Positions 19,846-30,277 of a DNA stretch of 64,000 nt are shown in pieces (position 1 is the first letter of the stretch; each line of letters starts with the position of its first letter). Source of the DNA: Alphaproteobacteria bacterium (GTDB lineage Bacteria > Pseudomonadota > Alphaproteobacteria > UBA828). The notes under the pieces are model-generated. The model ran no database searches. It was given only the letters and a program-made list of their open reading frames with translations, and had not been told where the DNA came from. The stretch lies in NCBI GenBank assembly GCA_963422645.2, contig CAXXVO010000007.1:704001-768000 (forward strand), given 5' to 3'. Made by a program: the position numbers and the translations under genes.

Positions 19846-20568
19846 ATGATCGACCTGCACTACTGGCCGACACCCAACGGCAAGAAGGTAACCATCCTGC
19901 TGGAGGAATGCGGGATGCCCTATCGCCTCGTCCCCTGCCACATCGGGAAGGGCGATCAGTTCGAGGATTCGTTCCTCAGGATCAGCCCCAACAACCGCAT
20001 GCCGGCGCTGGTGGACGACGACCCGCCCGGCGGCGGCGCGCCGGTCAGCGTCTTCGAATCGGGTGCGATGATGATGTACATCGCCGAGAAGGCCGGGCGC
20101 TTCTATCCGCAGGACCTGCACGGCCGCTACGAGGTCAACCAGTGGGTCATGTGGCAGATGGCGAACCAGGGGCCGAAGTTCGGCGAGTTCGGCCACTTTC
20201 GCCGGCTGGGCGACGATGAGGGCGACCAGACCTACGCCATCACCCGCTTCGGCAACGAGGTCAACCGGCTCTACGGCGTCATGAACAACCGGCTCTACGA
20301 CCGACCCTATCTCGCCGGCGAGGCGTACACGATCGCCGACATGATTTCCTATCCATGGGCCGTCTACTGGGAATCGCAGGGCCAGGACTTGGGCGACTTC
20401 AAGTACTTCAAGCGCTGGTTCGAGGAACTGTCTGAGCGCGAGGCGGTGCAGCGGGGCATGGCGGTGGGTGAGGACTTGCCTGAGGACCCCGACACCCTTT
20501 CAGACGAGGAGAAGGCGCGGCGGCACGCGTTGCTCTACTACCAGCGGGCGCGCCCGGCGCCGGGCTGA
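19846..20568 (+). CDS. Glutathione S-transferase, YfcG/YghU-like
   Basis: TPNGKKV, SPNNRMPAL, FESGA, WQMANQGP. Confidence 0.9.
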   Translation: MIDLHYWPTPNGKKVTILLEECGMPYRLVPCHIGKGDQFEDSFLRISPNNRMPALVDDDPPGGGAPVSVFESGAMMMYIAEKAGRFYPQDLHGRYEVNQWVMWQMANQGPKFGEFGHFRRLGDDEGDQTYAITRFGNEVNRLYGVMNNRLYDRPYLAGEAYTIADMISYPWAVYWESQGQDLGDFKYFKRWFEELSEREAVQRGMAVGEDLPEDPDTLSDEEKARRHALLYYQRARPAPG

Positions 20569-20579
20569 GAGAGCGCGGC

Positions 20580-20748
20580 CCGCGCACCCTCCTCACCCTA
20601 GTCCTCGGCTTAATCAGTTCCCTCAGGCGCCGGGCGCTCACTCCGTTCGCTTGGCTACGCGCCATGTGGCGCGGCGCGCGGTTCCGCGCTCCGGCCCGCT
20701 TCGCGGCCCGGCCTCACCATGGGTCTAGACTTGGGTGGCGGTGCCGCG
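20580..20748. repeat. REP-like palindromic intergenic element
   Basis: Between convergent genes; outer arms CACCCTAGTC / GACTTGGGTG (9/10) with several internal GC hairpins. Confidence 0.35.
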
Positions 20749-21780
20749 TCAGGTGACGGGCTTCCAGTCCCCCGCCGGCTTGAGCTTCTTGGCTTCGGGG
20801 ATCACCTCGGCGCCGAAGCGCTCGATCTGGTCGAGCTGCTCGGAAAGCGCGCCGGAGGGGCAGTCCAGCATGCAGACCGCCATCGAGAAGCCGGCGTCGG
20901 CGAACGCCGCGAGGTCCTCGAGAATCTGTTCAGCAGTACCGGTGCAGGTGAGGCGGGGATCGGCCTGTGCGGCCGGGTCGCCGGCGTCGGTGATGCGCGC
21001 GGTGGCGGCGCAGAGCATCAGGAAGTCGGAGGGGCTCCGGCCCTGCGCCGCAAGCTCGCGGCGCACTTCGTCCTGGAGGAGGGCAAAGCGACCGGCCTCG
21101 ACGTGAGAGTCGAGGAAGAGCGGATAGAGGCCGTCGCAGAAGCGTGCCGCACGCCTCGCGCCCCGGATCGTGTTGCCGCCGAAGACGATCGGCGGGTGCG
21201 GGTTCTGTTGCGCCGGCTTCGGGTCCTGGGAGACGTCCGTGAAGCTGTAGTAGTTGCCCTCGAAGGTGGCGAGGTCGCCGGTCCAGGAGGCCTTGTAGAT
21301 CTGGATGCACTCCTCTGTCCGCCGGTTGCGCTCCTCGTAGTCGATGCCGACGGCGTCGAACTCCTCGACCATCCAGCCGACTCCGACGCCCAGCATGAGC
21401 CGGCCGCCCGAGAGCTGATCGACGGTCATGAACTGGCGCGCGTCCGAGAGGGGGTGGCGATAGGGCGCGATGAGAACGCTGGTGGCGAGCTTGAGTGTCG
21501 TGGTCTGCACCGCGACGGCGCCCATGACGACGGCGGCGTCCAGCATGTTGTGGCGGCGCTGGTAGGCGCGCTGGCCGGACACGTTCGCGGTGTGGAAGCT
21601 CTCGGAAGCGTAGGGCATGCAGACATGGTCGGGATACCAGATCGAGTGAATGCCCGCTCGCTCGGCGGTTAGCGCCACCCGGATCGGGTCCATCTGCTCC
21701 ACCGGCGTGTGGTGGAGGAACATGTTCACGTCGTCGCGGTAGGATTGACCGTGGGTGTTACCGTAAAGCCCGACTTCCAT
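20749..21780 (-). CDS. LLM-class (flavin- or F420-dependent) oxidoreductase
   Basis: SIWYPDHV, TSVLIAPYRHP, GVGVGWMVEEF, PKPAQ. Confidence 0.85.
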   Translation of the reverse strand: MEVGLYGNTHGQSYRDDVNMFLHHTPVEQMDPIRVALTAERAGIHSIWYPDHVCMPYASESFHTANVSGQRAYQRRHNMLDAAVVMGAVAVQTTTLKLATSVLIAPYRHPLSDARQFMTVDQLSGGRLMLGVGVGWMVEEFDAVGIDYEERNRRTEECIQIYKASWTGDLATFEGNYYSFTDVSQDPKPAQQNPHPPIVFGGNTIRGARRAARFCDGLYPLFLDSHVEAGRFALLQDEVRRELAAQGRSPSDFLMLCAATARITDAGDPAAQADPRLTCTGTAEQILEDLAAFADAGFSMAVCMLDCPSGALSEQLDQIERFGAEVIPEAKKLKPAGDWKPVT

Positions 21781-21915
21781 GATGCTTCCCCTTTCATCCG
21801 CCCGGTTTCCGGCGCGGCGCGATTATGCCGCCGGCGCGGCCTGCCTGGAAGCATCGTCGCAAAGGTCGGCCAGTGGGCGAGAGCGTGCAGCCAGGACCGT
21901 CGTTAGAAGTCCGCT

Positions 21916-23377
21916 TCAGACGCGCGGCAATGCCCTGTCTTCATGCGGATAGGGGCTGAAATCCTCTTCGAGCTTCGACAGCAGGAAAAATATGTCTTCG
22001 GCCGTATTGGTGACGAGAACGACGTTCAATAGGTCAGTCTTGTCCAATTTCAGATCCGATTCCATGTATTTGCCGCGCAATCTGCGCATGATCTCGCCGC
22101 GGTCGCCCGACAACGCGTTCGCGATATCCCAGGACGTCTCGTCATCGCTCTCCATCGCGTGGTCCAGGGCGAGGAACACGCTGTCCACGCCCTCACACAT
22201 GCTCTCCCGAAACTGCTTCAACTCCGGTCGGTCGCCGATGTCGAGAAGCGCACCGCACATGACCGACCCGGAGTCCGCCAGCCACGTGAGCATCTTCTGA
22301 CGGCTGAGCAGCGCATTGCGATCCTCGACTGCCTGCATGGGATGAAGCGGTTGCAAGTCCGTCAGGAACTCCTCGATTTCGGTCATCAGGGTGCGCGACG
22401 CATCCCGGAGCGGGCGTACGTCCTCGCCCTCCCGAACGAGCTCGAAATACCGAATTTGCATCCTGAACGCGCGCCGCTGCTCCAGGTCGGCCAGCGCCAG
22501 CGATGTTTCGACATCGACCGTCGCATGACCGTGGATGAACTGCGCGCGCGACAGCTCGTCGATTTCCGATGCGGGCCACAGCCTCTCGAGGATGCGGGTC
22601 GATGGGCCCAGGACGGCGAGCATGATCGGCACCGGGACCACGGCCGTGATGACATAGACGAGGGCCAGTCGCTGGGGCAGGTCGAAGCCGGTCGCATCGA
22701 TCACCGCCTTGATCGACGGGACGCCCAAATGGATTTCGGCGTAGAGCAGCGGGATGACCGCTGCGCAGATCAGCGCATTGACGATCACCATGTACATGAC
22801 GACCTGGCGCGAACGCCCGGTCAGGTTGGCCGACAGCACGGCGAGGATCGCGCCTGAGCCTATGTAGCTCCCGTAGATGGTCATGATGGCCTGATCGACG
22901 GAGATTATGCCGACCGTCGCCAGGCTAATGCCGAAAACGGAGACTGCACCCGAGGACTGCACTATGAAGGTCAACACGGCCGCGACGACGAACGCGAGAA
23001 CGAGCGACTGCCCGGTTCCCTCCACCATCTCCCGGAACCAGGGCTCCTCGGCCAGCGGCGCCGCCGCCTCCCTGAGGAGCATCAGGCCGAGGATGATCAT
23101 GGCCCCGCCCAGGAACGACCCGGCGATGGCCCGGTACCGCGCCAGCCTCTCGCTGGCCACCACCGCGCCCGCAAGGCCGATGACATAGAGTGCGGCCACC
23201 TTGATGTCGAAGGTGACGATCATGACGAGGCCCGTCACGCCGATGTACCCGCCCAGGATCATCGCCAGGGCGCCGCTCATGGTGGTGAGCCGCGAGCGCA
23301 GGATGCTGACCACGATGAAGGTCAGCGCGGTCATGCTCTGGGTGATGCCGCCGCCGAGCGTTCCCCAAAGGAGCGCC
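21916..23377 (-). pseudogene. Na/Pi cotransporter family gene, 5'-truncated by the serine-recombinase element
   Basis: Two repeat motifs GITQSMTA and FIVQSSGA plus a PhoU-like tail; the frame continues upstream of Met 23334 (ALLWGTLGGG) and breaks at the element's inverted repeat. Confidence 0.75.
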
Positions 23378-23487
23378 GATGACGCCCTGAACGCAAAAGG
23401 TAACTTCCGCTTCGAACGTCAGATTGTGGAATGGCGAGACCGTCCCTTGACTGACTTGCGCCGCAAACGGTAATATTCTTATGGCAA

Positions 23488-23817
23488 ATGATCCGGTCAA
23501 CAAGATCCCAGAAGGTCGAGCGGCTCAATGCCGCCTACACGCTGCTCGCCCAGGGCGCCACGGCGAGCGAAGCCGTGGCACGGCTGTCGCAGCGCTTCGG
23601 GCTGTCGCAGCGTCAGTCCTATCGCTACGTCCAGGACGCGCGCGCCATGGGCCAGCCGGCCGAGCCGACCGAAGAGCTGATCCCGATCACCATCAAGATT
23701 CCAGGCACTCTGGCGGAGACCTTGCGAGCCCACGCCAGGAGCAGCGGCCACTCCATCGGGGAGATCGTCGCGCGGGCGCTGAGACGCTTTTTATCGGACG
23801 CGGATCGGCATGGCTGA
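23488..23817 (+). CDS. Small DNA-binding protein (HTH plus RHH/CopG-like) of the recombinase element
   Basis: RFGLSQRQSYRYV helix-turn-helix-like and ITIKIP...SIGEIVARAL RHH-like segments. Confidence 0.65.
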   Translation: MIRSTRSQKVERLNAAYTLLAQGATASEAVARLSQRFGLSQRQSYRYVQDARAMGQPAEPTEELIPITIKIPGTLAETLRAHARSSGHSIGEIVARALRRFLSDADRHG

Positions 23818-24037
23818 ACGTCGCTTGGGCGCTCGGCCCACGGTTCACCTCGCTTATGCCTTCGATCGTCTGCTCGACGCCAAACTCCACAACGCCTACG
23901 CGATCCTGGTGCCCGATCAAACTCACAAAACAGTCATGGTCCCCGCGGTTCTGAGCCACCCCGTGGCATGAAACAGGAGCGGTTCGGCTGACGTTTTCCT
24001 TGCGCTTGCACCCATTTGCCGTGTCAGGATGGGTATT

Positions 24038-24220
24038 GGCGGAGGTGGGGACGTGTGAGCGTCGTTATATCGGTGACGTAGTTCCCGATGACAAAACTGC
24101 TTCCGGCGGCCGGCTCCGCACCCCGTATTGTACCCGGCCCGTGGCCGTGGACGCGCGGCAAATTGCACCGCACCCGCTCGTCGGATGCGTGTTCTTCCGA
24201 CCGCTGTCCCCGCCTCCACC
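24038..24220 (+). ncRNA. Putative bridge/seek RNA of IS110 copy 1
   Basis: Closing stem GGCGGAGGTGGGGAC (24038-24052) / GTCCCCGCCTCCACC (24206-24220); internal CGCGGCAAA (24154-24162) matches donor junction CACGGCAAA 8/9; GATGACAAA (24087-24095) matches target ACTCACAAA 6/9. Confidence 0.6.
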
Positions 24221-24282
24221 GTGGCGATGCCACGGCGTGATCGTACGCCGCCGTGGCGAGAGCGCAAATGAGGAGGAAGGCG

Positions 24283-25533
24283 ATGAAGACGGAAGGCTTG
24301 CACGTCGTCCGGCCGCGCGCGGCGGGTCTGGACGTGCACAAGATGGAGATCACCGCGACGGTTCGCCTCTGTGAGGGCGAGGGTGAGCCGGTGGTGGAGA
24401 CGCGCTGCTTCGGCACGCTGCCGAGCGGTCTGGAGGAGATGGTCGCGTGGCTGACCGGTCACGGCGTCGAGGCTGCGGTGATGGAAGGGACCGGGGTCTA
24501 CTGGCAGGCGCCCTTCGCGGCCCTGGAGGCGGCCGGGCTCGAGGCGATCCTGGTGCATGCGCGTCAGGTGAAGCAGTTGAAGGGGCGCAAGACCGACGTG
24601 GCGGACAGCGTGTGGCTGGCCTGCGTGTGCCAGTTCGGGCTCTGCACGCCTTCCCACGTTCCGCCTGAGCCGTTCCGGGAGCTGCGCGCACTGAGCCGCC
24701 AGCGCCGCGTCCTGGTCAGGCAGCGCTCCGCCGTGCGCAACCGCGTGCAGAAGATCATCGACCGCGCCGGTGCGCGCATCGGCGGCATCCTCTCCGACGT
24801 CTTCGGCGTCAACGGCCGGAAGATCCTCGACGGCCTGGCGCAGGGGACGGCGCGCGAGGTCATCCTCGCCTCGCTCACCAGCCACGTTGCGAACAAGCTG
24901 GAGGGGCTCGGCGAGGCGCTCACCCTGAGCCTGGGCGACAACGACCGCTTCATGCTCAACGACCTGCTGGAGGAGCATGACGCGCTTGAGGCGCGCATCG
25001 CGTCCTACACCAGGAAGATCGACGGGCAGATGACACCGTGGGAGGAGCAGCTCCGTCTGCTGACCACCATCCCCGGCATCGACCGCACCGCCGCCTCGAC
25101 CATCCTCATCGAGATCGGCCCCGACATCGGCGTGTTCGCCTCCAAGGAGCACTTCGCCGCCTGGGCCGGGCTCTGCCCCGGCAACAACGAGAGCGGGGGC
25201 AAGCGCCGCAACGCACGCACCCGCATGGGCTCCAAGACCCTGCGCGCCTGCCTCGTCGAGTGTGCCCACGGCGCGGCCCGAACCAAGGGGTGCCAGTTCG
25301 AGGCTCATCACCGCGCCCTCGCCGCCCGGCGCGGCTACAAGCGCGCCATCGTCGCCGGCGCTCACAAGATGCTGCGCATCATCTATGTGGTGCTCAAGAC
25401 CGGCAGGCCCTACTACGACCGCACGGCCGACTACGACGCTCTGATGGTCAAGCGCAACGCTCCTCGGTGGATCCGCATGCTCCGCCGCTACGGCTACATC
25501 GAGCCCGTAGGCGCGGAACTCAAGGCCGCCTGA
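24283..25533 (+). CDS. IS110-family transposase/recombinase
   Basis: RuvC-like DEDD residues (GLDVHK, MEGTG, KTDVAD), IPGI, GNNESGG serine motif; AGGAGG RBS. Confidence 0.96.
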   Translation: MKTEGLHVVRPRAAGLDVHKMEITATVRLCEGEGEPVVETRCFGTLPSGLEEMVAWLTGHGVEAAVMEGTGVYWQAPFAALEAAGLEAILVHARQVKQLKGRKTDVADSVWLACVCQFGLCTPSHVPPEPFRELRALSRQRRVLVRQRSAVRNRVQKIIDRAGARIGGILSDVFGVNGRKILDGLAQGTAREVILASLTSHVANKLEGLGEALTLSLGDNDRFMLNDLLEEHDALEARIASYTRKIDGQMTPWEEQLRLLTTIPGIDRTAASTILIEIGPDIGVFASKEHFAAWAGLCPGNNESGGKRRNARTRMGSKTLRACLVECAHGAARTKGCQFEAHHRALAARRGYKRAIVAGAHKMLRIIYVVLKTGRPYYDRTADYDALMVKRNAPRWIRMLRRYGYIEPVGAELKAA

Positions 25534-25806
25534 GCGGCCCGCATCTCGTCAGCCGGCTACGCGGGACCGCTTCGGACCACATCGGGGAAGTCCACCGCTC
25601 GTCTCCGCCGCGCCGACCCTGGCGGTCTCAGCCAACGCCGTGACCTCGGGGTTGGAGCGTCACCGCGCGTCCCTCGCCAGAATCTGTTTCACGGCAAAAC
25701 AGTCATGGTCCCCGCGGTTCTGAGCCACCCCGTGGCATGAAACAGGAGCGGTTCGGCTGACGTTTTCCTTGCGCTTGCACCCATTTGCCGTGTCAGGATG
25801 GGTATT

Positions 25807-25989
25807 GGCGGAGGTGGGGACGTGTGAGCGTCGTTATATCGGTGACGTAGTTCCCGATGACAAAACTGCTTCCGGCGGCCGGCTCCGCACCCCGTATTGT
25901 ACCCGGCCCGTGGCCGTGGACGCGCGGCAAATTGCACCGCACCCGCTCGTCGGATGCGTGTTCTTCCGACCGCTGTCCCCGCCTCCACC
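25807..25989 (+). ncRNA. Putative bridge/seek RNA of IS110 copy 2
   Basis: Same sequence as 24038-24220. Confidence 0.6.
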
Positions 25990-26051
25990 GTGGCGATGCC
26001 ACGGCGTGATCGTACGCCGCCGTGGCGAGAGCGCAAATGAGGAGGAAGGCG

Positions 26052-27302
26052 ATGAAGACGGAAGGCTTGCACGTCGTCCGGCCGCGCGCGGCGGGTCTGG
26101 ACGTGCACAAGATGGAGATCACCGCGACGGTTCGCCTCTGTGAGGGCGAGGGTGAGCCGGTGGTGGAGACGCGCTGCTTCGGCACGCTGCCGAGCGGTCT
26201 GGAGGAGATGGTCGCGTGGCTGACCGGTCACGGCGTCGAGGCTGCGGTGATGGAAGGGACCGGGGTCTACTGGCAGGCGCCCTTCGCGGCCCTGGAGGCG
26301 GCCGGGCTCGAGGCGATCCTGGTGCATGCGCGTCAGGTGAAGCAGTTGAAGGGGCGCAAGACCGACGTGGCGGACAGCGTGTGGCTGGCCTGCGTGTGCC
26401 AGTTCGGGCTCTGCACGCCTTCCCACGTTCCGCCTGAGCCGTTCCGGGAGCTGCGCGCACTGAGCCGCCAGCGCCGCGTCCTGGTCAGGCAGCGCTCCGC
26501 CGTGCGCAACCGCGTGCAGAAGATCATCGACCGCGCCGGTGCGCGCATCGGCGGCATCCTCTCCGACGTCTTCGGCGTCAACGGCCGGAAGATCCTCGAC
26601 GGCCTGGCGCAGGGGACGGCGCGCGAGGTCATCCTCGCCTCGCTCACCAGCCACGTTGCGAACAAGCTGGAGGGGCTCGGCGAGGCGCTCACCCTGAGCC
26701 TGGGCGACAACGACCGCTTCATGCTCAACGACCTGCTGGAGGAGCATGACGCGCTTGAGGCGCGCATCGCGTCCTACACCAGGAAGATCGACGGGCAGAT
26801 GACACCGTGGGAGGAGCAGCTCCGTCTGCTGACCACCATCCCCGGCATCGACCGCACCGCCGCCTCGACCATCCTCATCGAGATCGGCCCCGACATCGGC
26901 GTGTTCGCCTCCAAGGAGCACTTCGCCGCCTGGGCCGGGCTCTGCCCCGGCAACAACGAGAGCGGGGGCAAGCGCCGCAACGCACGCACCCGCATGGGCT
27001 CCAAGACCCTGCGCGCCTGCCTCGTCGAGTGTGCCCACGGCGCGGCCCGAACCAAGGGGTGCCAGTTCGAGGCTCATCACCGCGCCCTCGCCGCCCGGCG
27101 CGGCTACAAGCGCGCCATCGTCGCCGGCGCTCACAAGATGCTGCGCATCATCTATGTGGTGCTCAAGACCGGCAGGCCCTACTACGACCGCACGGCCGAC
27201 TACGACGCTCTGATGGTCAAGCGCAACGCTCCTCGGTGGATCCGCATGCTCCGCCGCTACGGCTACATCGAGCCCGTAGGCGCGGAACTCAAGGCCGCCT
27301 GA
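26052..27302 (+). CDS. IS110-family transposase/recombinase, copy 2
   Basis: Translation identical to copy 1. Confidence 0.96.
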   Translation: MKTEGLHVVRPRAAGLDVHKMEITATVRLCEGEGEPVVETRCFGTLPSGLEEMVAWLTGHGVEAAVMEGTGVYWQAPFAALEAAGLEAILVHARQVKQLKGRKTDVADSVWLACVCQFGLCTPSHVPPEPFRELRALSRQRRVLVRQRSAVRNRVQKIIDRAGARIGGILSDVFGVNGRKILDGLAQGTAREVILASLTSHVANKLEGLGEALTLSLGDNDRFMLNDLLEEHDALEARIASYTRKIDGQMTPWEEQLRLLTTIPGIDRTAASTILIEIGPDIGVFASKEHFAAWAGLCPGNNESGGKRRNARTRMGSKTLRACLVECAHGAARTKGCQFEAHHRALAARRGYKRAIVAGAHKMLRIIYVVLKTGRPYYDRTADYDALMVKRNAPRWIRMLRRYGYIEPVGAELKAA

Positions 27303-27500
27303 GCGGCCCGCATCTCGTCAGCCGGCTACGCGGGACCGCTTCGGACCACATCGGGGAAGTCCACCGCTCGTCTCCGCCGCGCCGACCCTGGCGGTCTCAG
27401 CCAACGCCGTGACCTCGGGGTTGGAGCGTCACCGCGCGTCCCTCGCCAGAATCTGTTTCACGGCAAATCCCGGTCCGAGCGCAGGACATAGGAGACGACC

Positions 27501-29489
27501 ATGAAGATCGCAGCCATTTACGCGCGGGTCTCCGGCGAGCGGCAGAGAGATGACAACACGATAGCGAGCCAGACCGAGGCCCTGATCGCCTACGCCGAGG
27601 ACCACGGTTACAGCGTCGCGCCCGACATGATCATTGAAGATGACGGCTATACCGGCGCCGTTCTCGAACGCCCGGGGCTCGAGCGGGTCAGGGATCTCGC
27701 CGCGGAAGGGCGCATCGACACGGTGCTGGTCCATGCCCCGGACCGTATGAGCCGGCGCTATGCCTACCAGGTTCTGATCATCGAGGAGCTGGCCCGTCAG
27801 GGCGTCGAGACCGTGTTCTTGAGAGCGCCGTCGATGGAAACCCCGGAAGATCATCTGCTCGTCCAGTTCCAGGGCATGATTGCGGAATACGAGCGCGCGC
27901 AAATCCTGGAGCGTTCCCGGCGCGGCAAGCGACATCGGGCGCGACGCGGCGAAATCGCCGTCCTCGGCGGCGCGCCCTATGGCTACCGCTACCACAAGAA
28001 AACCCCGGACAGCGATGCGTTCTACGAAATCGTCGAGCCGCAGGCGTCGGTGGTTCGCGAGGTTTACCGCTGCTACACCTGCGATCACATGAGCATCGGC
28101 GCGATCACCTGCAGGCTCAATGAGCGCGCGGTACCCACCTCCACCGGGCGCTCGCGCTGGGAACGCTCGACGGTGTGGGCGATGCTCCGCAATCCGGCGT
28201 ACAAGGGGAAAGCCTGTTTCGGCAAGACCCGCCAGATGCCGCGTAAATGTGTGACACGTCCTCTGCGCCTGCGCCGCGGCGTGGCCAGCGGCACGACCGG
28301 CGGTCACGAAAAACCGCGTGAGGAGTGGATCGAGATCCCGGTGCCGGCGATCGTCAGCGAAGAGACCTTCGCCCTGGCCGAAGAGCGGCTGGAGATGAAC
28401 AAGATCCACGCGCCGCGTCGCACGAAGACGCCCAGCGTGCTCCAGGGACTGGTCTCGTGCGGCAAATGCGGCTACGCGCTGTCTCGCACATCGGCCCAGA
28501 CGAGTGCCCGCAAGATCTCCTATTATCGCTGCCTGGGTTCTGACTCTTGGCGCCATCTCAACGGACCGGTGTGCGACAGTCGGCCGGTGCGCCAGGACTT
28601 GCTCGATGACGTCGTCTGGGGCGAAGTGGTCCGCCTGCTCGAGGATCCAGCACTGATCGGCGCCGAGATCGACCGGCGACTACAGGCGGCCCGCGCTTCC
28701 GATCCAAACCAGCAGCGCGAGAACGACCTGCGGCACCGTCTGATCCGGGTCCGAAAAAGCATCGACCGCCTGGTCAACGCCTATCAGGAGGAGTTGATTA
28801 CAATCGATGAACTGCGCGACAGAACGTCCGAGCTCCGTCGTCAGGATCAGGCTCTGAATCGCGAACTGCAATCCACCGTCGATCGGGCGAAGGATCGCGA
28901 GACCTATCTCCGGCTCGCCGAGACGCTGACCGGCTTTCTGGCGCGGCTGCACTCGTCCGCCGAAACCCTGGACATCGCCGAACGGCAGCGCATCGTCCGG
29001 CTCATCGTGAAGGAGGTGTTGGTCACCGAGGACAAAATCACCATTCGCCATTCAATCCCAATCTCGGGATCGCCAGGCGGCGGTCCAGACCCGTCGAAAC
29101 CCGGCAACCACAGCACCGAAGGCGAAGGTTGCCTTTTGCGTTCAGGGCGTCATCACCGACCCTTGCGGCGTTCCCCGCAGGTTGTCCCGCCACTCTCCAG
29201 CCTCCATGACGCCGGCGCTCAACCACTTGATGATCAGCCTGATAACCCGCTTGTCCCCGATCCGGTGCTCAAGAAACCGGACCAGCCAGTCCCTCGAAAC
29301 CGTGTCGAAGAATTTGCGGATGTCACAATCGACCACCCAGTTAATCTTGCGCTGTCTAATGCCGACCGCGAGCGCATCGAGCGCATTATGCGCCCCACGC
29401 CCGGGCCGGAACCCGTAGCTGAACCCCAGGAACTCCGCCTCGTAAATCGGCGTCAGGATGTAACTACCCAGGTACCCCGCGAGCTCTGA
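27501..29489 (+). CDS. Large serine recombinase (resolvase, recombinase, zinc-ribbon and coiled-coil domains)
   Basis: YARVS catalytic Ser, DRMSR, ERSRRGK, APYGY, CGKCG...YYRC; genuine protein ends near CLLRSGR (~29150), the rest is read-through into flanking DNA. Confidence 0.92.
   Translation: MKIAAIYARVSGERQRDDNTIASQTEALIAYAEDHGYSVAPDMIIEDDGYTGAVLERPGLERVRDLAAEGRIDTVLVHAPDRMSRRYAYQVLIIEELARQGVETVFLRAPSMETPEDHLLVQFQGMIAEYERAQILERSRRGKRHRARRGEIAVLGGAPYGYRYHKKTPDSDAFYEIVEPQASVVREVYRCYTCDHMSIGAITCRLNERAVPTSTGRSRWERSTVWAMLRNPAYKGKACFGKTRQMPRKCVTRPLRLRRGVASGTTGGHEKPREEWIEIPVPAIVSEETFALAEERLEMNKIHAPRRTKTPSVLQGLVSCGKCGYALSRTSAQTSARKISYYRCLGSDSWRHLNGPVCDSRPVRQDLLDDVVWGEVVRLLEDPALIGAEIDRRLQAARASDPNQQRENDLRHRLIRVRKSIDRLVNAYQEELITIDELRDRTSELRRQDQALNRELQSTVDRAKDRETYLRLAETLTGFLARLHSSAETLDIAERQRIVRLIVKEVLVTEDKITIRHSIPISGSPGGGPDPSKPGNHSTEGEGCLLRSGRHHRPLRRSPQVVPPLSSLHDAGAQPLDDQPDNPLVPDPVLKKPDQPVPRNRVEEFADVTIDHPVNLALSNADRERIERIMRPTPGPEPVAEPQELRLVNRRQDVTTQVPREL
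29155..29459 (-). pseudogene. Group II intron reverse transcriptase, fragment 3 (RT2a-RT4), 3'-truncated
   Basis: LTPIYEAEFLGFSYGFRPGRGAHNAL...VVDCDIRKFFD...GTPQGSV; stops at the recombinase element IR. Confidence 0.9.
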
Positions 29490-29608
29490 GTGCGTGCTGA
29501 TTTTGGTCGCCGTCGGCGCCGTTTCGCCGTCGGCGCGTCGCTGATCCCCGCTTGACTGTATAGGTTCTCTCGCCTATGGGTTGCACTCTCGCATGAGAGG
29601 AGCAGCCG

Positions 29609-30277
29609 GTGGGGTATTTCGGGTCGAAGGCGACGACCGGTCTGAGCCAGGCGCTGATTGCGCTGATGCCGCCGCACTCTGTCTATATCGAGAGCCATCT
29701 TGGGGGCGGGGCGCTGATGAAGCGCAAGCCTGCGGCCATGCGCTCGATCGGGATCGACCGCGACGAGCGGGCGCTTGAGGCCTTTGGCTGCGACTACCCG
29801 GTGGAGTTGGTGCACGGCTGCGCCCATTCCTTCCTGGCCTCGTTCCCGTTTCTGGGCCCGGAGCTGGTCTACAGCGATCCGCCCTATCTGCACGCGACCC
29901 GGCGTTCGTCGCAGCGCTACCGCTTCGAGTACGAGGAGGCCGACCACGTCGCGCTCCTCGAACTGCTCAAGGGTCTGCCCTGCCAGGTGATGGTCTCGGG
30001 CCACCCGTCTGCGCTCTATGACGAGCTGCTGGCGGGCTGGCGCCGGCTGGCGCTGCAGGTGACGACCCAGGCCCAGGTGCGGACCGAGGTCGTGTGGTTC
30101 AACTTCGCGCCTGACCGGGTGCACTGGGCGAGCTTCGCCGGCCGGAACTTCACCGAGCGCCAGTGCATCAAGCGCAAGGCGGCCAACTGGGGCCGGCGCT
30201 ACGAGGCCATGCCGGCGGGCGAACGCCTGGCGGTGCTGGCCGCGATCATGGCCGTCGAGGCCGACGAGGGTTCGTGA
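29609..30277 (+). CDS. DNA adenine methyltransferase (Dam/D12-like, compact)
   Basis: YFGSK, YIESHLGGG SAM-binding motif, IGID, YSDPPY catalytic motif, RTEVVWFNF. Confidence 0.85.
   Translation: MGYFGSKATTGLSQALIALMPPHSVYIESHLGGGALMKRKPAAMRSIGIDRDERALEAFGCDYPVELVHGCAHSFLASFPFLGPELVYSDPPYLHATRRSSQRYRFEYEEADHVALLELLKGLPCQVMVSGHPSALYDELLAGWRRLALQVTTQAQVRTEVVWFNFAPDRVHWASFAGRNFTERQCIKRKAANWGRRYEAMPAGERLAVLAAIMAVEADEGS

Follow-up and report, generated by a model that had tools for sequence, protein, structure and literature searches.

Organization of the locus

The DNA examined here (the window) is a stretch of 64,000 nucleotides (nt), positions 704,001 to 768,000 of the forward strand of contig CAXXVO010000007.1 (assembly GCA_963422645.2), from an alphaproteobacterium of the lineage UBA828, and at 23926-27467 it holds two identical head-to-tail copies of an insertion sequence (IS) of the IS110 family that repeat with a period of 1769 nt. 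Each copy is made up of a 353-nt non-coding left end (23930-24282), a gene for a recombinase of 416 amino acids and a 162-nt right end (25534-25695). Comparison among the copies in this genome and with homologous elements elsewhere makes it very probable that the left end encodes a bridge RNA of ~180 nt (24041-24217), in the sense of the recombinase gene, which folds into a three-way junction and guides insertion. The parts of the element and its flanks are as follows (bp, base pairs).

23928-23929 (+): AA core on the left side, directly after the left target ..CTCACA, whose last base is 23927; placed by comparison of occupied and empty sites in the same genome
23930-25695 (+): IS copy 1, 1766 bp, from ACAGTCATGG.. 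to ..TTTCACGGC; placed by empty sites and the tandem period
24283-25533 (+): recombinase gene, 416 amino acids from ATG, with D17, E68, D105, D108 and S304; from Pfam and the IS621 alignment
25696-25698 (+): internal tandem junction AAA, the AA core plus one extra A; AA alone is found at other genomic junctions
25699-27464 (+): IS copy 2, identical to copy 1 and followed by an AA core (27465-27466) and the right target ATCCCGG

The genome holds 48 copies of the element at 37 places, 47 of them full-length and identical (1765 nt between end markers) and one with an internal deletion. The repeating unit is 1766 bp plus one AA core, and its ends, ACAGTC.. and ..CACGGC, are not inverted repeats. 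For three of the insertion sites, unoccupied paralogs exist within the same genome: the window's own site, empty in two copies, reads ..ACTCAC-AAAA-TCCCGG with four A, the second site ..GGAAC-AAAA-CGCTTC and the third ..GAAC-AAA-GTGCATG. Since the three occupied/empty pairs taken together fit only a 2-nt AA, the core is AA and not CAAA, and the target is ..(G)ACA-AA-R (R, purine), the donor ..CACGGC-AA-ACAGTC. The original prediction for this locus had read the junctions exactly as they are (left flank ..ACTCA CAAA ACAGT, internal ..CACGG CAAA ACAGT, right flank ..CACGG CAAA TCCCG), and its A-rich core stands, but as CAAA it was set in the wrong register, and the target reconstructed from it (ACTCA-CAAA-TCCCG) is one base off, the empty copies carrying four A. 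One further insertion (C6:66371), with CATA in place of CAAR at its right flank, lies in a highly repeated sequence and is 3 bp short when compared with the empty paralogs of that sequence, of which there are more than 100; it has the appearance of an aberrant or off-target insertion.

The recombinase matches Pfam families PF01548 (DEDD_Tnp_IS110, E = 1.8e-23) and PF02371 (Transposase_20, E = 4.5e-21), and aligns with the solved transposases of IS621 (8wt6, E = 6e-16, in two stretches) and ISCro4 (E = 3e-15). Its DEDD and Ser motifs (..KTD..D.. and ..ESG..) align with those of 8wt6, so the downstream gene is, as had been predicted, an IS110 recombinase related to that of IS621. DEDD and catalytic-Ser transposase domains, site-specific insertion, a short duplicated core and the lack of terminal inverted repeats, all found here, define the IS110 family, and a non-coding left end that exceeds the right one (353 against 162 nt) and lies upstream of the gene is the mark of the IS110 group proper in PMC11208160 and PMC11187229. 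In IS1111 elements, by contrast, the non-coding region is usually downstream, and the subterminal inverted repeats, of 11-13 bp, are set 7 and 3 bp in from the termini (PMC11187229), whereas here the RNA is upstream and an inverted repeat of 6-9 bp has its left copy 39 nt inside the element. A tblastn search against plasmids gave no relative above 45% identity and no close IS with a name, the full-length matches being generic 'IS110 family' genes; a search of the class matched 4 of 401 genomes, the window's own included, at E <= 1e-60, and brought in no new families.

Fold of the proposed left-end RNA

A scan of one genome per species returned 57 homologous loci, with protein identities of 97-42%, and a metagenome scan 11 more. 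Homologous left ends align from the terminus through to the start codon, and homologous right ends all close with ..TT[T/A]C.....-AA. Loci whose left ends are rearranged or interrupted (L016, L024, L025 and L056) and partial gene matches (L023, L041, L043, L044, L047, L051, L053-L055 and L057) were excluded from the RNA alignment. RNAalifold was run on 26 distinct sequences, pairs being counted on an alignment fitted to no structure, and the fold comprises the following elements.

24041-24217 (+): body of the proposed bridge RNA, bounded by closing stem P1
24041-24051 with 24207-24217 (+): closing stem P1, 10 pairs, 4 of them changed on both sides
24057-24102 (+): target-binding arm, with stem 24057-24061/24098-24102 enclosing the right guide strand, P3 and the left guide strand
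24071-24087 (+): hairpin P3, conserved, with one-sided changes only
24104-24206 (+): donor-binding arm, closed by 24104-24108 with 24202-24206 and containing hairpins 24123-24137 and 24136-24146
24170-24188 (+): distal donor-loop hairpin, 7 pairs, 4 of them changed on both sides; also recognized by eye

Overall, 92.5% of helix cells are paired, compared with 84.7% after shuffling and 40-50% when the partners are slid, and 13 pairs change on both sides. All five pairs of the target-arm stem are kept (97.7% paired, none broken), one of them through 10 double changes (16 G-C, 8 U-A, 2 A-U), and three of the five pairs in the helix closing the donor arm have likewise changed on both sides. Because RNAalifold and the pair counts support the same helices, the enclosed architecture put forward in the original prediction is a real three-way junction, closed by a long stem with compensatory changes; the predicted order, target loop and then donor loop, is also the one observed. 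The closing stem itself had been given 15 pairs (24038-24052 with 24206-24220), and it exists with 14 of them, 13 Watson-Crick and one G-U, the remaining position being a C-A mismatch. The G-U pairs in the helices indicate that the + strand is the folded one. An alternative pairing of 24058-24061 with 24202-24205, which competes with 24104-24108/24202-24206, was rejected, RNAalifold having favoured 24057-24061/24098-24102.

Left guides and target preference

Two strands of the RNA, one in each arm, carry sequence of the DNA that the element joins.

24090-24097 (+): left target guide GACA (24090-24093), core AA (24094-24095) and AC (24096-24097), the latter being the first two bases of the left end
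24155-24161 (+): left donor guide GCGGC plus core AA, matching the right end ..CACGGC-AA

Across families, a variable segment of 4-5 nt preceding an invariant AA-AC in the RNA equals the 4 nt to the left of the insertion, with guides as different as ATCT, ATAT, CACC, ACGC, CGCT, TGAG, CCAC, GTTG, CTCC, GTCT, TGTC and GCAAA. Averaged over 21 guide families with 79 sites, 3.56 of the 4 positions agree, compared with 1.25 +/- 0.21 for shuffled guides, and none of 5000 shuffles does as well. Taken position by position from -1 to -4, the match is 1.00, 0.95, 0.92 and 0.70, and at -5 it is 0.16, which is background (non-cognate ~0.25). The original prediction had proposed a left target guide of 9 nt, GATGACAAA (24087-24095), and covariation of this segment with the insertion sites of homologs as the way to check it. 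The sequence lies where it was placed and the coupling exists, but only for the last 4+2 nt, since its first three letters, GAT, do not track insertion sites. Instead of 9 nt, the programmable part of the left guides comprises ~4 nt plus the core.

The 33 distinct insertion sites in the window's own genome, in numbering of the IS621 type, give the preferences listed here; in the insertion consensus predicted near GATGACAAA, GACAAA is right and the first three letters are wrong.

Target position 4: G in 17/33
Target position 5: A in 29/33
Target position 6: C in 33/33
Target position 7: A in 32/33
Target positions 8-9: AA in 33/33
Target position 10: A in 24, G in 8, T in 1, hence a purine in 32/33
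Target position 11: T in 14/33 (background 0.164, p = 3.6e-4)

No preference beyond positions 4-11 stands out in these sites. With 987 ACAAAR motifs available on the two strands of the genome, target specificity is low, and guides as short as these, of 4+2 nt for the left side and 0-2 nt for the right, explain how one element came to occupy 33 distinct sites.

The left donor guide is likewise located where it had been proposed, within CGCGGCAAA at 24154-24162, which is present as described. It is constant in close relatives, whose right ends are constant as well, and in distant relatives it co-varies with the right end, with CGGC, CAGC or CAAC in both. The observed 4-nt match over 11 rows is reached by 3 of 5000 shuffles, a test in which two rows with a mis-detected right end (L004 and L049) were kept and count against the hypothesis. 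Both left guides thus follow the IS621 type, each repeating the top strand of its DNA partner, left target or left donor, along with the core. A perfect reverse complement of the donor left side, TTTGCCGTG (24015-24023), was also correctly noted between ACCCAT and ATGGGT, but neither this sequence nor the hairpin flanking it is conserved: the exact complement is confined to the closest relatives, has degenerated in others with an identical right end and is absent from distant ones. It is not counted as a guide, and it is probably not functional.

RNA, protein or single-stranded DNA

Loop positions that change with the flanking target while the recombinase stays similar, as they do in many families, are a signature of nucleic-acid guides. 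A different account of the left end would make it a structured leader or a protein-binding DNA, the target being chosen by protein or by single-stranded DNA, as in IS200/IS605, rather than by RNA. The inverted repeat described below, which co-varies and so ties the left end to the right end, could be such a protein- or DNA-level signal, G-T pairs are equally allowed in folded single-stranded DNA, and RNA from the locus is not demonstrated, the libraries containing only contigs of relatives. A protein-only choice of target agrees poorly, however, with loops that shift with the target beside a similar recombinase, helices of the RNA type persist down to 42% protein identity, and recombinases of the IS621 type have been shown to require RNA (PMC11208160 and PMC11208158). 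An origin of specificity outside RNA is accordingly regarded as very improbable.

The libraries in question come from 24 public runs, six of them annotated as RNA and containing 0.06-0.21 of the sampled words; four RNA runs were compared at a likeness of at least 88%. The contigs found in them belong to relatives and not to this strain, one of 603 nt spanning 23925-24529 and one of 1735 nt spanning 24020-25640. Transcription as a discrete molecule, and action of the guide as RNA, are inferred from homology of the IS621 type and covariation of the RNA type.

Several observations weigh against a bridge RNA at this locus. The contigs of relatives continue into the gene, and one of them into flanking DNA; being contigs they cannot define RNA ends, and they may reflect carry-over of DNA. 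An Rfam scan of 20000-30000 returned no family at the left end, and a simple scan of the tandem junction region for sigma-70 promoters and terminators returned neither a promoter-like site nor a terminator. The fold of the single sequence is modestly better than that of its shuffles (z = -2.03), and P3, the hairpin that sets the loop topology, has zero pairs changed on both sides. L062 matches its single left target at 2/4 positions only, and all the shuffle counts overstate independence because the homologous families are related to one another. The Rfam scan did give two weak matches to the Pseudomonas small RNA P10, at 25299-25370 and 27068-27139, within the recombinase gene, at 22 bits, which is below the gathering score of 37 and probably due to chance.

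Proposed right guides

With a bridge RNA as the favoured reading, the strands that could specify the right half of target and donor are the following.

24062-24070 (+): proposed right target guide TCGTTATAT, in the 5' strand of the target loop; from complementarity to right targets
24190-24193 (+): possible right donor guide TGTT, complementary to donor A9-A10-C11-A12

The strand at 24062-24070 is variable among families, and in many of them it shows complementarity to top-strand bases immediately to the right of the core. Over 19 families with a known right target, the mean longest Watson-Crick run to AA plus the right target is 3.06 +/- 0.18 for shuffled pairs and 3.84 for cognate ones, the latter value being reached by none of 5000 shuffles; with G-U pairs allowed, 22 of 5000 reach the observed one. 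Complementarity is clearest in L027 (8 of 9 sites) and L062, at 6 nt, and in L059, L026, L032 and L050, at 5 nt, and in these cases the pairing segment stops 1-2 nt short of P3, or 4 nt short of it in L026. Applied to the window element, the same register makes U24068 the partner of position 10 and A24067 that of position 11, which fits both the purine observed at position 10 (A or G being expected for U) and the enrichment of T at position 11. The right target guide is most likely 24062-24070, located 5' of the left guide.

This order is the reverse of that in IS621, and a reading that keeps the canonical IS621 layout would treat the complementarity of 24062-24070 as a coincidence and the right target guide as absent or located elsewhere, for example at TATT (24126-24129), where the original prediction had put it. 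Precedent is on its side, the IS621-type order being the one described for elements of the IS110 group in PMC11208160 and PMC11187229, and so is the window element, whose right-target specificity is almost nil past position 10, whose right target guide rests on two positions only, and whose 24062-24070 strand has no long complementarity to its own sites, with a mean Watson-Crick run of 2.77 that is below the shuffled family mean. The last two of these properties also count against a guide at 24062-24070. However, the left guide directly adjoins the 3' strand of the covarying stem (24098-24102), after which the donor-arm stem begins, and no unpaired 3' strand is left in the loop for a guide in canonical order. 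TATT is part of a hairpin loop and shows no link with targets, its positions varying among relatives with no relation to right targets or left ends, and the cognate complementarity of the 5' strand, in its consistent register before P3, was matched by no shuffle. The canonical layout is therefore considered unlikely.

The hairpin holding TATT (24121-24136, CCCCG-NNNN-GT-N-CCCGG) was also compared with the left target, right target, left end and right end of each family, and no relation emerged. It has invariant CCG/CGG stems and a loop with 4+1 variable positions (TATT..A here), for which no relation to targets, donors or other RNA positions was found across families; the U/C variation of the loop is also compatible with pairing to several GG runs.

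Of the two right-hand guides called weak in the original prediction, TGTT (24190-24193) is still plausible as a short right donor guide. In most relatives G-U-(U) follows the donor-loop hairpin, opposite the constant donor C11-A10-(A9), and in L058, where the left end starts with TC rather than AC, the RNA carries GAU rather than GUU and the post-core letters of the left-guide strand are UC rather than AC, a compensatory change. On the opposite side of the balance, this guide is near-invariant in most relatives, and L018 and L020 do not fit.

Proposed mechanism and comparison with known systems

In the mechanism suggested by these findings, the 3' strand of the target arm, GACA-AA (24090-24095), being the top strand of the left target and the core, would pair with the bottom strand, while its 5' strand (24062-24070) would pair with the top strand right of the core, over 2 nt only in this element, giving the R-T preference at positions 10-11. 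In the donor arm GCGGC-AA (24155-24161) would act through its match to the right end CACGGC-AA, and UGUU (24190-24193) could form pairs with the first nucleotides of the left end. On the model of IS621, a tetramer of the DEDD/Ser recombinase together with the RNA would align the donor junction ..CACGGC-AA-ACAGTC.., found in excised circles or tandem arrays, with (G)ACA-AA-R sites, and strands would be exchanged at the AA core. Recombination at donor halves would generate tandem arrays.

Bridge RNAs of IS110 elements are established, and in the IS110 group they sit in the left end (PMC11208160, PMC11208158). The element resembles IS621 in having its RNA in a long left end upstream of a DEDD/Ser recombinase, a target loop that precedes the donor loop, left guides in top-strand sense with a 2-nt core, a donor formed by the right-end/left-end junction, and a donor loop composed of a 5' left guide, a hairpin and a short, here putative, right guide. 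It differs in its core (AA here, CT in IS621), in programmable left guides of ~4 nt as opposed to 7 nt plus core, in having two arms in a three-way junction with a closing stem of 10-14 pairs, and in the low similarity of the protein, which aligns in those two stretches alone. It also differs in guide order: the arrangement stated for IS621 (PMC11208160), left guide 5' and right guide 3', is found in the donor loop and not in the target loop, where the proposed right-target strand lies 5' of the left guide. The target-loop order proposed here is that of the seekRNA of IS1111-type elements (Siddiquee et al. 2024, PMC11187229). Compared with IS621, the target module would be circularly permuted, the stem that is capped there being open here and the open one capped, with the donor loop in canonical order.

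Cores other than CT and diverse folds have already been reported for bridge RNAs (PMC11208160; bioRxiv 10.64898/2026.10.21.760802), the latter source describing 86 covariance models, many of them departing from the IS621 fold, with 12-40 programmable nucleotides in total; the short-guide family described here fits the low end of that range. No description of a permuted target loop in IS110 bridge RNAs was found in the literature, figures and supplements lying outside the search. The novelty appears to reside in the combination of an upstream bridge RNA, an IS1111-like target-loop order, a three-way junction, very short guides and natural arrays. A broader proposition, held to be slightly less than an even bet, is that the 21 guide families, mostly from marine or host-associated metagenome genomes, form a distinct IS110-type lineage with a circularly permuted target loop and a naturally promiscuous bridge recombinase, whose array junctions are permanent chromosomal donor sites built by donor-half recombination and register slips in A-runs.

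Bridge RNAs are genome-writing tools in active development, and their natural diversity sets the design space. If the proposition holds, the target module tolerates a swap of open and capped stems, a point relevant to the evolution of the IS110 and IS1111 layouts from one another; a bridge recombinase works in nature with ~6-7 specified target bases, at a cost to the host reflected in 48 copies and the abundance of ACAAAR motifs; and tandem arrays with two junction lengths occur naturally, as 'half-match' and by-product observations would predict. Should the swapped order prove wrong, this would be no more than an ordinary addition to a well-known class.

Tandem arrays and genomic surroundings

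Tandem arrays are found at 6 of the 37 places, with 2, 2, 2, 3, 3 and 5 copies (contigs C5, C8, C10, C11 and C16, and the window). Their 11 internal junctions read ..CACGG-CAA-ACAGT.. in six cases and ..CACGG-CAAA-ACAGT.. in five, and the window's junction (CAAA) has one A beyond the canonical donor junction (CAA). The additional A would be accounted for by a slip of register within the run of A, either in excision or in recombination at donor halves. Head-to-tail repeats have been described as by-products of CazIS110-1 in 3/96 colonies (bioRxiv 10.1101/2025.10.25.684509), and for IS621 a 'half-match' mode, in which recognition of the donor half alone can drive recombination (10.64898/2026.08.31.748434); the arrays fit both. 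Unlike those laboratory cases, the arrays seen here are natural, reach up to 5 copies and have both AA and AAA junctions.

Nested and adjoining copies also occur among the homologs. In L056 (1100-1500) one copy is inserted within the DNA encoding the left target guide of another, making the guide's own DNA a potential target; upstream of L052 a copy sits at the right end of another copy; the metagenome contig L063 has a head-to-tail pair downstream of the gene; and in L066 a foreign right end lies 12 nt upstream.

Two more features of the element concern its left end. The first is the short inverted repeat.

23969-23976 (+, also at +1769): left copy TGAAACAG, with its partner CTGTTTCA at 25684-25691, just inside the right end

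The two copies co-vary, GAAAC/GTTTC and GAAAT/ATTTC being concordant in 13/13 usable rows; a 14th row (L004) was left out, its right end being mis-detected, and visual inspection of L049 showed a third variant, GTAAC/GTTAC. The second is the stretch at 24222-24267, which separates the bridge RNA from the ribosome-binding site and is missing from L006, L040 and the relatives' RNA-library contigs, and around which one genomic copy (C16:23522) has a 32-bp deletion. Absent in relatives and partly deleted in one genomic copy, this stretch is evidently dispensable.

The reported contamination of the assembly is 8.48%. The genome is rich in repeats, the flank 14-mers of three insertion sites occurring 110, 67 and 26 times, and from this recurrence other mobile elements must be abundant in it. 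The insertion site in the window is flanked by a ribbon-helix-helix gene (23488-23817) and a large serine recombinase gene (27501-29489). The stretch carrying these two genes recurs at least five times in the genome, bearing 0, 0, 1, 2 or 3 IS copies, and looks like another mobile element, inside which the arrays appear to grow.

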